Assembly (NCBI GenBank): GCA_011364975.1
Contig: RDOE01000028.1
Coordinates: 1-38,995, forward strand
Length of the DNA stretch: 38,995 bases
Source of the DNA: Promethearchaeota archaeon
Lineage (GTDB): Archaea; Asgardarchaeota; Lokiarchaeia; Sigyniarchaeales; SOKP01
Direction: 5' to 3'
Shown here in pieces: positions 15,713 through 33,734 of the stretch. Both the position numbers and the translations under genes were made by a program. The notes under the pieces are model-generated. The model was given only the letters and a program-made list of their open reading frames with translations, did not search any database and was not told where the DNA came from. Position 1 is the stretch's first letter. Each line of letters begins with the position of its first letter.

Positions 15713-17071
15713 TTAAGTTAGCATCTCCATAAATGCACCCAAACGAGTTTTTACCTGTTCTAAATTCTCACCTATTCTATTGAAGGTTAACGCAATCGCA
15801 GGAATCTCTAAATCTTTACGAGTTTTTTCTTTTAACAATGTGAAACAGTTTGAAATAGAATGACATCCGAAAAGTTGGTTAAACACTACGCCATCTACTT
15901 TTGTTTTTTCTGCAACCCGGATATATGAATTCGTTAAAGTATTATTATCACATCCAACTCCATTTTCAGTGATATTAAGTAAAAACTTAGCATATGCTTC
16001 TATTGGATTGGTAGTATTAGAAATTGGAACCTCATCTAGAAATCTTAAGACATCCCAGTCCGCATATAATGCTCTACCTCCTAATTCATAGATGATTTCA
16101 TGAGTTTGGGGTTCCCAACCTCCAAACATTGGTGTGACCAATACTTTTGGCATTTCTGAAACATCCATACCTATGCCTTTACGAATCCGTTCTCTCATTT
16201 CATTTACCATCTGGTGAATATTTTCAGCATAGCGTTTGGCGTTAGAATTATAATCTTGGAAACTAATACTTAGCAAGGCGAGTACTTCACTAAAAGTCGC
16301 GGGGTTACAAGGGTAAAAATCAGAAGTACCTATATCATATAAAATTGTTTTATAATCCTGTTTAATCTGATTAGCTACTTTAAAATGATCACGCATAATA
16401 TTTTGATTATATGAATTTCCGCTCAATGTTTCAAGCTGGTGAATCACATCTGATAAATTTTCAATCAATAATTCTAAAGCATTACCGATATTTCTTGGAG
16501 GAATATCTAACCAAATCTGTTTTACATTACCATCTATTGCTTTTAATGATTCCAAATATTTGTTCCAAGCGCTACATCTAATAGAATAATTCATGTTAGC
16601 ACTTACATTCTTGGATTTTGTAACATACATCCCCACTAAAGTTTTAAGCGCAAAACAAAAATCGCTTGAAATTCCACGCTCTACACCAATATCAAACATT
16701 TCATTATACTTTTCATTCAAAGTTTCAATAACGTCGTCAATTATTTGATCTATTACTTTATTAACTTCATTAATACCCATATTCTTTACATAACCTAAGA
16801 ATTTTGAAACATTATCCCACCCGAATAAGGAAGCACTCGATCCTAATAAGGAAAGGTATTTGCTTATTTTAAAGACATGCATTCTTATGGGAAAGACTGG
16901 AACTAAATTAGGAAAGCCATAGATTAAATCTGAAAACGGTAAAGCTACGGAGATTAAATGTTTTTTTTCTCTGAGCTTCAATCTTTTTAATTCTTCTCTT
17001 CCGGCAATAAGATTGTAAGACATTTTTAAAACAGAAGAAAATCGTATAATTTCATCAGCGTATAAACTCAT
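15713..17071 (-). CDS. 2-hydroxyacyl-CoA dehydratase (HGD-D/HgdAB family) subunit
   Basis: Cys motifs (DFCFALK, RCSAW, DGVVFNQLFGC) and C-terminal QVKTRLGAFMEML; TAATG overlap with the upstream gene; in an operon with the activator. Confidence 0.85.
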   Translation of the reverse strand: MSLYADEIIRFSSVLKMSYNLIAGREELKRLKLREKKHLISVALPFSDLIYGFPNLVPVFPIRMHVFKISKYLSLLGSSASLFGWDNVSKFLGYVKNMGINEVNKVIDQIIDDVIETLNEKYNEMFDIGVERGISSDFCFALKTLVGMYVTKSKNVSANMNYSIRCSAWNKYLESLKAIDGNVKQIWLDIPPRNIGNALELLIENLSDVIHQLETLSGNSYNQNIMRDHFKVANQIKQDYKTILYDIGTSDFYPCNPATFSEVLALLSISFQDYNSNAKRYAENIHQMVNEMRERIRKGIGMDVSEMPKVLVTPMFGGWEPQTHEIIYELGGRALYADWDVLRFLDEVPISNTTNPIEAYAKFLLNITENGVGCDNNTLTNSYIRVAEKTKVDGVVFNQLFGCHSISNCFTLLKEKTRKDLEIPAIALTFNRIGENLEQVKTRLGAFMEMLT

Positions 17072-18079
17072 TATGCAATCATCTCCAAAAATGCTTCAAT
17101 TCTGGTTGATATTTGACCTCTGTTAGCTCTTGAGTAATCTCTTTCCAGATTTAATACTTGTATTCCATACTTTTGTAAGTTCTCTTTGAAATAAGTTGAA
17201 AGCATGGAAAAATGATCGCAAAATTTTATGATATGATTGATTACACCAAATGATTTACCCTTGCCTTCTTTATACTTTTTATTTAATGCTACTATTTGTG
17301 AAATTTTATTATCGAGAAAATGGGGAACAGAGTGGTCACTTAAAATATTTTGTCTAAACCTTTCAACAAAAAATTCATATGGGTCTTTTAGGCTATTATA
17401 TGATTCAAATTTGCGACACGTGCTATTGCAGAAATATTTAGTTCTTCTTTTTCTGCTAATGTTTTTAAAATAATTATTCTTCCTTTTGAGGATAAAATTT
17501 CCTCAATAGAATGTTTAACTTTTTTGAGCCTAAAATTTTAAGCTCGTTCAATTCCTGCAATTTTATTTTAAAATTATTGTATTTTCGAATACTTTCCATC
17601 AAAGTGTTGGCATTAATTTCGGTACTAGTAATTTTCTCAAGTTGTTTCTTAAAATCCATTAATTCTAATCGAAAATACTTTAAGCTATTTTCATTCTTAG
17701 TGTAGGGTATATAAAAATTAATCCTAGCTACATTACAATATTTCGATATAATCTCTGAGCCACATATATCTGAGACACAATGATTAGATACGATAACGTA
17801 ATCTACCAGCTCTAAAAATCGAAAGTCACTTGGTTTTGTAGAGAATAACCCAATACAAGATTGAGTAAAAGCACAGGTTGAAGGTGGAAGAAAGTCATGA
17901 CTAGCATCCATTAACTCATCATTACCTGCAAACATCATTCTTATAGGGTAAAAACCCGATGCATCTAATATCTCTTCCGGAATGTTATCATGAGCGATAA
18001 AACTGGCAATTTTAACTCTACTTTCTTTTTTTTGCCTCAAAAACTCAAAGAAATCTGATAAGAAATCACGATCAAACAT
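17071..18079 (-). pseudogene. 2-hydroxyacyl-CoA dehydratase subunit, interrupted by a foreign HTH-like segment
   Basis: N part: IPEEILDASGFYPIR, STCAFTQS, SNHC. C part in another frame: IIKFCD...LERDYSRANRGQISTRIEAFLEMIA, stop at 17071-17073. The central region appears missing and 17400-17513 encodes unrelated sequence. Confidence 0.75.
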
Positions 18080-18189: not shown

Positions 18190-19014
18190 TTAATTTGAGT
18201 TATGCTCTTGAGCAATTAGGGCAGCGCCAATAGCTCCAGTTAACTGTGGCAGCTCGGGGATAACAATTTCAAATCCAAATTCTTCTTCTAAATACTTTTT
18301 TACAGCGGGATTTTTAGCAACTCCTCCACAAAATACTAATAGAGGTTCCACTCCAATTCGTTTTGCCATGCCAGCAACCCTTCTTGCGATGGATTTATGA
18401 ATTCCGCTTGCAATATCCTCTTTAGAAGCTCCTCTTGCAAATAAGCTAATAACTTCACTTTCAGCGAATACTGTACAAGTAGAGCTTATTGATTCTGGTT
18501 TTTTTGATTTTAAGGCAAGGTTGCCAAATTCGTCAATGGGAACTTCTAATGCATGCGCCATTACTTCGAGAAACCTACCCGTTCCAGCAGCACATTTTGA
18601 CTATGCAAAAATCAAATTTTGCAATTTATCATTCATTTGGAAATCAATTACGCTACCGGTCTTCGGAGAGATAACTATTGCCTTACTATCTTGTCCTCCG
18701 ATATCTACAACAGAGTGTGTTTCTGGGAAAAAATATTGAACTCCTCTTGCATGAGCTGTAATTTCTGTAACCCTATCATTGGCTATATCTATAGTATTTC
18801 GACCATACCCTGTACTCATAACAAACACATCCGACGCTTTCAATTCATGGCTTCTTAGTAATTCTTCAAACAAATTGTGACCCACTCTTTTAAAGTCATA
18901 TGTAGAACGCTCTGTGCGGTGATCAATTAATTTTCCGTCATTTATTAGAACAATTTTTGTAGCTAATGAACCAATATCAATTCCTATAAAATGTTTCAAG
19001 TTTGTTACCACCAA
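18190..19014 (-). CDS. hgdC: Acyl-CoA dehydratase activator (HgdC/BadF-BadG-BcrA-BcrD ATPase), split by a candidate 30-nt intron
   Basis: [32 protein letters not shown]|[37 protein letters not shown]. Both ORF-track pieces are in the same frame. Spliced length is 264 aa from 19014; the start may be TTG at 18999 after GGTGG. Confidence 0.9.
18596..18625 (-). other. Candidate bulge-helix-bulge (EndA-type) mRNA intron, 30 nt
   Basis: mRNA reads UGAU AA/A U UGCAAAA UUUGAU UUUUGCA U A GUCA AA/A UGU: 4-bp central helix UGAU:GUCA, two AAA bulges, 7-bp intron stem, in-frame UAG. Excision yields AAU GAU AAA UGU GCU (NDKCA). Confidence 0.75.
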
Positions 19015-33131: not shown

Positions 33132-33734
33132 TTAAGGTTTAAACCACTCAAAGAAGTAATAAGTAATTGTTAAAGGATTAGCAATTACAAACTTTTTTCT
33201 AACAGAGGTTGCTAAGCGCCCAGCGCGTACCATATCAATAGCAGATATCTTGGCATCATGAGGAAGTACATGAACAATAAAAGGAGAATGCTCTAAACCA
33301 GGACCCCTTTTATATACTACAAAATCTGCTCCAAATTTTAGACCAGGTCTTGGAATATAACCTTTTTCTCTTAAATCTTGATATATTATAAATTTCTCTT
33401 CAAATTTGTGATGAATTTTCTTCCCAATTTCATAAAAATCATCGGGTGTTAGAGATTTATTTTGTTGTGGGTCAAAAAGGGTGATCCTGTCATTCTTTAA
33501 TAAGTAATATGCTTCTATTACAGATAACTCCGAAGGTTTTGAAAAGTATTCTAATCTTGGTTTACTTATACCCAAAGGGGACCCAAAAAAACCTTTTTTA
33601 ACATATAAATAAGAGGCATATAACGGATTGAATATAATCACTCTATTATTAACAAATTTAGCGGGTATTTTATCTGGAATATCCGATTCATCAATATTTT
33701 CTAAAGAGATCTGAATAGTTTTTTCTTGATCCAT
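33132..33734 (-). CDS. endA: tRNA splicing endonuclease, catalytic (alpha) subunit
   Basis: LSVIEAYYL, YQDLREKGY, GLKFGADFVVY...EHS, RLATSVRK containing the Tyr/His/Lys triad; single unit of 200 aa. Confidence 0.95.
   Translation of the reverse strand: MDQEKTIQISLENIDESDIPDKIPAKFVNNRVIIFNPLYASYLYVKKGFFGSPLGISKPRLEYFSKPSELSVIEAYYLLKNDRITLFDPQQNKSLTPDDFYEIGKKIHHKFEEKFIIYQDLREKGYIPRPGLKFGADFVVYKRGPGLEHSPFIVHVLPHDAKISAIDMVRAGRLATSVRKKFVIANPLTITYYFFEWFKP

Follow-up and report, generated by a model that had tools for sequence, protein, structure and literature searches.

A candidate bulge–helix–bulge intron in a dehydratase activator gene of Promethearchaeota

In a 38,995-nucleotide (nt) stretch of DNA from a Promethearchaeota archaeon (contig RDOE01000028.1 of assembly GCA_011364975.1, positions 1 to 38,995; hereafter 'the window'), a gene for an activator of 2-hydroxyacyl-CoA dehydratase is interrupted by a 30-nt insert. 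This insert is likely a bulge–helix–bulge (BHB) intron lying within a protein-coding gene, spliced by EndA and RtcB. Such an intron, in a probable Asgard archaeon, had been proposed from the letters of the window (hereafter 'the original prediction'). The host is indeed an Asgard archaeon, and the proposed reading gains support from the nine genomes, of 154 in the order, that carry an insert at this site, from the shared geometry and covariation of these inserts, from selection on the interrupted gene, and from the presence of genes for both enzymes.

In the transcript, UGAU at the end of the upstream exon would pair with GUCA within the intron to form a central helix of 4 base pairs (bp). Each helix strand would be followed by a 3-nt AAA bulge, and a hairpin within the intron would close one side. 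An (alpha-beta)2 EndA would cut inside both bulges, and RtcB would ligate the exons, restoring MNDK-CAAGTG including its putative cluster-ligating Cys; unspliced mRNA would give only a truncated protein.

The interrupted activator gene and its same-site inserts

The features of the locus, in the order in which they would be transcribed, are as follows.

18626–19014, minus strand: activator exon 1, N-terminal half of BcrAD_BadFG (open reading frame [ORF] 18601–19014; PF01869 positions 1–136, E = 4.7e-23)
18628–18631, minus strand: H5, exon side of the 4-bp central helix (UGAU; final base of the Asn codon and whole Asp codon)
18625–18627, minus strand: B1, 5′ bulge AAA, proposed 5′ cleavage site
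18596–18625, minus strand: candidate BHB intron, 30 nt, cut after the second nucleotide of each bulge (eight homologous inserts; covariance model R1)
18604–18623, minus strand: h′, intron hairpin with the 7-bp stem UGCAAAA/UUUUGCA (18623–18617 with 18610–18604) and the loop 18616–18611
18598–18601, minus strand: H3, intron strand of the central helix (GUCA)
18595–18597, minus strand: B2, 3′ bulge AAA, proposed 3′ cleavage site
18190–18595, minus strand: activator exon 2, from the Cys codon of CAAGTG to the stop codon (PF01869 positions 148–271, E = 3e-27)

The insert (18595–18624, minus strand) splits the MNDK|CAAGTG motif of a BcrAD/HgdC-type activator gene. As the original prediction described, the minus strand reads …IDFQMNDK and then continues through 10 codons with an in-frame TAG at 18603–18601. 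EndA cuts after the second nucleotide of each bulge, a rule that places the intron at 18596–18625; the two intervals are equivalent, since AAAU stands at both borders, and five cut registers therefore yield an identical product. The Asn-Asp-Lys codons at the 3′ end of exon 1 contribute H5 and the first bulge; at the other border, the final base of B2 takes the third position of the Lys codon. The 5′ boundary of exon 1, a TTG at 19014, is a mechanical ORF start.

In a Pfam search, positions 1–136 of the PF01869 (BcrAD_BadFG) profile matched the upstream ORF and positions 148–271 the downstream ORF; the break therefore sits inside one domain. Without the insert, the activator gene of this genome (G000; 3.74 Mb, 30.6 per cent G+C, rated 99 per cent complete) is open for 268 codons from stop to stop. 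Among solved structures, an intronless orthologue (L038) matches HadI (4EHT; E = 4e-66) and HgdC (1HUX) best, and every letter of the conserved motif stretch is identical in the alignment with these two proteins. On this homology, the interrupted gene, predicted to be a dehydratase activator, is a 2-hydroxyacyl-CoA dehydratase activator. By homology to the HgdC structure, the Cys of CAAGTG is presumably a ligand of the [4Fe-4S] cluster.

The suspicion that the insert is an assembly artefact is countered by its presence in DNA contigs from two studies, one of which may be the source sample of the assembly. A 1596-nt contig (run X7) spans the examined stretch, insert included, with no gap, and an 802-nt contig (run X6) covers 18450–18699 with the insert and zero differences. 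Among 24 sequencing runs searched, 20 contain the stretch, and all 20 are DNA runs.

Alignment of orthologues revealed relatives with and without the insert. Exon 1, used as an N-terminal query, found a match in 40 of 41 genomes (G000 and 40 relatives). The orthologues of the same genus are mostly single open frames of about 261 amino acids (aa) in which MNDKCAAGTG is contiguous, but the frames of G005 and G019 break where that of G000 does. Among 80 named loci, four have the insert and 76 do not. A pattern search for 12–42 additional bases separating the Lys codon from the Cys codon, in which incomplete genomes cannot demonstrate absence, found same-site inserts in four of 42 genomes of the genus and nine of 154 genomes of the order. 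The carriers are confined to one Promethearchaeota family (9/135, G000 included), where they belong to two genera (g1, 4/42; g22, 5/54); no carrier occurs in the 11 remaining genera of the family or among 19 genomes from three other families of the order. Paralogues with Asn-Asp-Arg instead of the Asn-Asp-Lys sequence had no same-site insert in any of the 154 genomes.

The nine inserts are 30, 35, 32, 33, 32, 32, 32, 35, and 27 nt long. Six of these lengths are not divisible by three, and the remaining three inserts, which would keep the frame, hold in-frame stop codons (TAG or TAA), so that neither read-through nor recoding can rescue the gene.

Fold, splicing enzymes, and selection

All parts of the predicted motif were found in the window where the original prediction had placed them: UGAU at 18631–18628, GUCA at 18601–18598, the two AAA bulges, and the UGCAAAA/UUUUGCA stem. 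The same elements recur in the other carriers. H5 and H3 pair in all nine (UGAU in eight; UGAC in G048, where the U-G pair has become C-G), and GUCA is invariant, whereas the remainder of the intron varies. B1 is AAA in eight carriers and AAG in one, B2 is AAA in seven and AAG in two, so that in every carrier both strands of the central helix have an AAR bulge immediately on their 3′ side. The hairpin h′ is found in all carriers and covaries; its sequence differs among genomes, with stems of 6–10 bp in intron-only folds (−6.4 kcal/mol in G000). It is flush with both bulge and helix in G144 and G019, and flush except for one mismatch or one-base bulge in G000, G097, and G141.

Covariation was assessed with a covariance model (R1) built from three carriers. 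Two MAFFT alignments (A1 and A2) misplace the hairpins, and A2 served as the seed only. R1 recovers all nine carriers at 45–79 bits. In the alignment fitted with R1 (A4), 89.4 per cent of cells are paired, compared to 82.5 per cent in shuffles (none of 500 as high); five of nine hairpin stem pairs have double-sided changes, and the central helix is 100 per cent paired. When partners were slid by 1–3 columns as a control, pairing fell to 28–45 per cent. At synonymous sites near the junction, the Asn codon is AAT in all nine carriers versus 41 of 60 intronless genes (one-sided P-value = 0.044), and exon position +6 is U in all nine versus 26 of 60 (P-value = 0.0012, uncorrected over 270 sites); either a helix constraint or hitch-hiking with the intron would explain both biases.

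The enzymes that such an intron would require are encoded in the genome, one of them in the window itself.

33132–33734, minus strand: EndA alpha, catalytic splicing endonuclease subunit (PF01974, 102.9 bits)

G000 holds two PF01974 genes, this one and a paralogue on contig C191, together with a gene for RtcB (553.7 bits). The best solved relative of EndA alpha is the catalytic subunit of the (alpha-beta)2 enzyme of A. pernix (3P1Z_B; E = 1.6e-35), and the region that matches a loop of the A. pernix protein is present. Tyr, His, and Lys, the catalytic residues of EndA, stand at the aligned positions. The C191 paralogue is most similar to the M. jannaschii enzyme and has Phe and Ser in place of Tyr and His, as expected of a structural beta subunit. 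Two EndA paralogues were found in eight of the nine carrier genomes; G096 (92 per cent complete) showed one. Asgard EndA is described in PMC5829648 as an (alpha-beta)2 enzyme whose L1 loop is tied to broad specificity; the same source states that relaxed (HBh′) motifs are cut by (alpha-beta)2 and epsilon2 enzymes only.

Aragorn found 15 tRNA genes in G000, nine of them with introns of 8–35 nt, and many others are probably too interrupted for recognition. The small number of genes and the frequency of introns fit reports that Asgard tRNA genes are heavily interrupted by introns (bioRxiv 10.64898/2026.10.13.758758; PMC11291895). The EndA alpha gene lies about 15–19 kb from the activator on the same contig in five of the nine carriers (G000, G096:C56, G144:C7, G101:C26, and G097:C157), a proximity that is probably plain conserved synteny.

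The carrier genes appear functional once the insert is removed. In-silico excision regenerates D-K-C, as had been predicted, and restores MNDK|CAAGTG and a frame of about 260 aa in all nine carriers, with open frames of 261–278 codons (stop to stop) and a conserved C-terminus. To compare selection, lineage-specific nonsynonymous and synonymous (N:S) changes were assigned to terminal branches under parsimony; each branch was compared with a sister and with two outgroups, and only sites at which the outgroups agree were used. The resulting N:S counts are 4:29 (G005), 1:26 (G048), 15:25 (G019), 12:15 (G096), 12:14 (G144), 11:24 (G097), 5:23 (G101), 4:19 (G141), and 23:24 (G000). Pooled, the carriers have 87:199 (0.44) and seven intronless sisters 62:122 (0.51), where neutrality would give about 3.4. 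Additionally, carriers deviate at only 0–2 of 140 columns that are conserved in at least 93 per cent of 75 sequences. The carrier activator genes are under purifying selection, and the insert must therefore be removed or skipped during expression.

Several observations weigh against a spliced BHB intron. Cleavage, ligation, and the exact cut positions are inferred from sequence. The outer exon–exon helix h has just one contiguous pair, in line with the weak exon-side pairing noted in the original prediction, and the motif is accordingly of the relaxed HBh′ kind rather than a strict hBHBh′. In G005, six extra bases widen the 5′ bulge to about 9 nt, and several carriers have one or two unpaired bases between hairpin and helix. 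The minimum free energy fold of G000 pairs AGUCAA with an upstream UUGAUU and bypasses the proposed UGAU helix. Both AAR bulges together form a direct repeat, for which a BHB model has no need and which a target-site duplication or a pair of take-off and landing codons would predict. Because A4 was fitted to the structure, this alignment is biased toward it. Terminal-branch selection is uninformative for a very recent intron gain, and G000 itself, with its even N:S counts, carries a broken neighbouring gene (see below), given which its operon may be decaying.

The fit on the G000 sequence alone is thin, and its significance derives from the eight other genomes: the 91-nt fold of G000 has z = −1.71, with 14 of 200 shuffles folding equally well. 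A contiguous-stem test gave P-values of 0.94 for G005, 0.71 for G048, and 0.37 for G101, although this test underrates bulged hairpins. On balance, the nine inserts considered jointly argue for an EndA/RtcB-type intron.

Alternative explanations and the possible spread of the candidate intron

The insert might instead be a disabling insertion, a small hairpin with a possible target-site duplication, and the nine carriers pseudogenes that have yet to decay. The AAA(U) direct repeat at both borders would fit such an event, as would the small minority of carriers (9/154) and the N:S counts of 23:24 on the G000 branch. So would the state of the adjacent HgdB-like gene, which is clearly broken in G000.

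17071–18079, minus strand: HgdB-like dehydratase (beta) subunit gene, broken in G000 (aligns to residues 9–201 and 277–386 of the 387-aa G005 orthologue)
15713–17071, minus strand: HgdA-like dehydratase subunit gene, intact, 452 aa (PF06050, E = 7.4e-33)

In the centre of the HgdB-like gene (17206–17473, minus strand), about 94 unrelated AT-rich bases replace 225, with two frame changes. The gene is probably a pseudogene, in G000 only; this operon of G000 probably no longer yields a working dehydratase, even though the activator itself still appears intact. We nevertheless consider a disabling insertion unlikely. The nine inserts have diverged strongly and yet keep both GUCA and, through compensatory changes, the hairpin. 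Both exons are open in all nine carriers, the pooled N:S ratio (0.44 against a neutral value of about 3.4) is not above that of intronless sisters, and the 140 conserved columns hold the 0–2 deviations reported above. Furthermore, G005 and G048 have intact downstream genes (HgdB-like frames of 387/388 codons and HgdA-like frames of 467 codons), and G000 has no further copies of the insert.

Within the window, the 30-mer has one match at up to three mismatches (0 expected from 100 shuffles), and it is single-copy at the same threshold in the whole G000 genome. A dispersed hairpin resembling a miniature inverted-repeat transposable element, which the original prediction had named as a possible refutation, was rejected on this count. 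The core motif is not dispersed either: a scan of G000 gave 11 hits versus nine in a reversed control, with a 7-bp stem at the activator only. In a scan of G000 with R1, the activator locus was the sole hit at E ≤ 10 (150 of 2770 first-look candidates scored).

The most serious functional rival is programmed translational bypassing, since the borders are matching Lys triplets in all nine carriers: ribosomes would take off at the Lys codon, slide over 27–35 nt, and land on the matching Lys codon before Cys. Matched codons, a stop after the take-off codon, and a hairpin are hallmarks of the bypass elements in T4 gene 60 and of the byp elements of yeast mitochondria. Here, too, the take-off and landing triplets are both AAR in nine of nine carriers, the hairpin begins directly after the take-off codon, the insert lengths are free of any requirement for multiples of three, and G005 has UAA after its take-off codon. 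Bypassing nonetheless strikes us as very improbable. It leaves unexplained the invariant GUCA:UGAY pairing and the exact spacing of 4 bp and 3 nt across the nine carriers. A stop follows the take-off codon in one carrier only, and AAA or AAG triplets, which would act as decoy landing sites, occur inside every insert, in some cases in loops. Translational bypassing is not known from archaea. EndA-type mRNA splicing, by contrast, is known from archaea according to PMC2738675.

A split protein, whose halves would be translated separately and assemble into a working activator with the insert as an intergenic spacer, has very little to recommend it. Both halves are open (137 and 123+ aa), and gene callers would list two genes. 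However, the first in-frame ATG of the second half in G000 lies 11 codons past the junction (ORF 18190–18561), a start there would lose the CAAGTG motif with its Cys, no ATG, GTG, or TTG stands in frame at the G000 junction, and the break falls inside one domain and adjoins a conserved motif. Finally, recoding of TAG as an amino acid (e.g. pyrrolysine), under which the 30-nt in-frame insert of G000 with its single TAG would add 10 residues, is refuted: of the nine homologous inserts, six have a length not divisible by three, and the two other in-frame inserts hold TAA.

Turning to the evolution of the candidate BHB intron, we used maximum likelihood to build a tree from the DNA of 75 spliced coding sequences, drawn from 90 loci after leaving out two loci without the motif, one 3′-incomplete locus, and exact duplicates. 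The nine carriers are scattered on this tree: the intron label needs nine changes, at least seven of which are forced by well-supported branches. In approximately unbiased (AU) tests, a clade of G005 and G048 was rejected (P-value = 3e-98), and clades of G101, G141, and G097 (P-value = 0.485) and of G141 and G097 (P-value = 0.283) were not. G005 is 92 per cent identical to its intronless sister. Six of the nine introns, across both genera, share the 3′ end …ATAGTCAAA. Judged by their homologous 3′ ends and their occurrence in two genera, the introns are homologous and old. The patchy distribution of homologous introns points to repeated precise losses, to spread by recombination, or to both.

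Lineage-specific substitutions, mostly synonymous, are in excess near the intron in three of eight carrier lineages (two windows tested in each). Specifically, 19 of 33 substitutions in G005 fall within ±32 codons of the intron (P-value = 0.00015), and 10 of 23 in G141 (P-value = 0.0015) and nine of 27 in G048 (P-value = 0.018) fall within ±20 codons. None of the six intronless sisters tested showed such clustering near the intron site. Across all carriers, the evidence for local similarity around the intron is weak: label permutations reached the observed value in 149, 438, and 312 of 2000 cases in three windows; when the window was ±15 codons, 31 of 2000 did so.

These patterns hint at recombinational mobility of the intron. 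It is conceivable, albeit doubtful, that the intron is a mobile allele that moves by recombination between Loki lineages into the same site, and that its persistence reflects EndA-dependent splicing that gates the activator. Short tracts of flanking exon would then be carried along, by analogy with co-conversion in intron homing, without an endonuclease of the intron's own. The gated protein would be an oxygen-sensitive, ATP-consuming activator of a radical enzyme; that splicing acts as a switch is speculation. If real, such mobility would be the first evidence that BHB introns can spread horizontally in the protein-coding genes of the prokaryotes most closely related to eukaryotes.

Comparison with known systems and further observations

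The pre-mRNA intron of crenarchaeal cbf5 was reportedly described by Watanabe in 2002. According to a later account (Yokobori 2009, PMC2738675), that intron resembles the inserts described here in several ways: it is short, BHB-like, located in a coding sequence, and reportedly cut by EndA; it lies at a key residue, disrupting the codon of a catalytic residue, so that it has to be removed, just as the activator insert lies beside the putative cluster-binding Cys; and it is absent from some lineages, with both gain and loss described and with hosts that have a hetero-oligomeric EndA. The activator intron differs from it in residing in a metabolic gene instead of an RNA pseudouridine synthase gene and in Asgard archaea instead of Crenarchaeota, in its much patchier distribution (nine of 154 genomes, with the forced changes given above), and in that its splicing is predicted from sequence comparison. 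The cbf5 gene of G000 (a TruB_N gene) is itself uninterrupted, with one 345-aa open frame and no stops.

Like archaeal pre-tRNA BHB introns, the activator introns have a 4-bp helix between two 3-nt bulges, lie in the same size range, and would be processed by the same proposed enzymes, but their host RNA is an mRNA. The HVO_1309 intron of Haloferax volcanii likewise involves EndA acting on an mRNA but, according to PMC7714728, is located in the 5′ untranslated region (UTR) and leaves the reading frame uninterrupted. As of 2020, that source lists crenarchaeal cbf5 mRNA and the Haloferax 5′ UTR as the only BHB introns known outside tRNA and rRNA. By that account, EndA/RtcB splicing of an archaeal coding sequence is documented for essentially one gene, cbf5.

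Two further comparisons concern elements of other kinds. Bypass elements (T4 gene 60 and the mitochondrial byps) are also short inserts of lengths that are not multiples of three, with matching border codons and a hairpin, but the activator inserts conserve a 4-bp helix and 3-nt bulges and contain decoy Lys triplets. In eukaryotes, HAC1/XBP1 mRNA is cut by Ire1 and sealed by tRNA ligase or RtcB in a stress-regulated reaction. The process proposed here would similarly be a spliceosome-independent, protein-catalysed removal of a small frame-controlling mRNA intron, with a different endonuclease and recognition motif; HAC1/XBP1 splicing is regulated by stress signalling.

A search of the open full-text literature, exclusive of subscription journals and supplements, turned up no report of such an intron within a coding gene of an Asgard archaeon. 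Novelty lies in the gene, the lineage, and the population dynamics, whereas the mechanism is the known one. If confirmed, the activator would be a second, unrelated spliced coding gene, and the lineage closest to eukaryotes would use its tRNA-splicing machinery on mRNAs as well. BHB introns could then occupy metabolic genes and come and go over short evolutionary times. The nine natural variants, some of them relaxed, and the many intronless alleles are material for studies of EndA specificity, of intron gain and loss, and of possible regulation. The case is also a warning that gene callers may split or discard such genes in Asgard metagenome-assembled genomes (MAGs).

A paralogue-based scan of G000 for other split genes (13663 ORFs of at least 50 aa; 9138 adjacent pairs) gave 21 candidates and recovered the activator. 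At 14 other junctions inspected (eight of 21 rows were left out, and three of those inspected belong to one paralogue family), there was no other short BHB-compatible insert; from their sequences, these junctions are read as in-frame TGA codons, adjacent genes, tandem duplication, or frameshifts. Because the scan is blind to genes without a paralogue in G000, it cannot show that the activator intron stands alone. In the HgdB and HgdA genes of the fetched loci, no further small inserts were found, only frame shifts (L053 and L070). The HgdB-like genes of these two loci change frame without a matching insert (tblastn), probably through frameshifts or sequencing errors.

Several paralogous genes of G000 are each broken by one in-frame TGA, at an alignment position that they share and across which an uninterrupted paralogue reads on; the TGA may encode selenocysteine. 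The cases are as follows.

C149, about 47726, plus strand: in-frame TGA
C149, about 49296, plus strand: in-frame TGA
C145, about 8343, plus strand: in-frame TGA
C124, about 11033, plus strand: in-frame TGA
C69: in-frame TGA

Among the orthologous activators, L011 (G004:C234:3069-3449) has one TGA within its match, which would be a sequencing error, a pseudogene, or recoding. A contig titled as a Nanopelagicaceae bacterium carries an 86-per-cent-identical fragment of the archaeal activator gene (L104; DATKTW010000061.1), and loci from MAGs titled Hod-, Hermod-, Thor-, and Odinarchaeota (L061, L067, L068, L073, L079, L085, L089, and L093) branch within the Promethearchaeota clade in the gene tree. 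The likely cause in both cases is mis-binning or outdated labelling.

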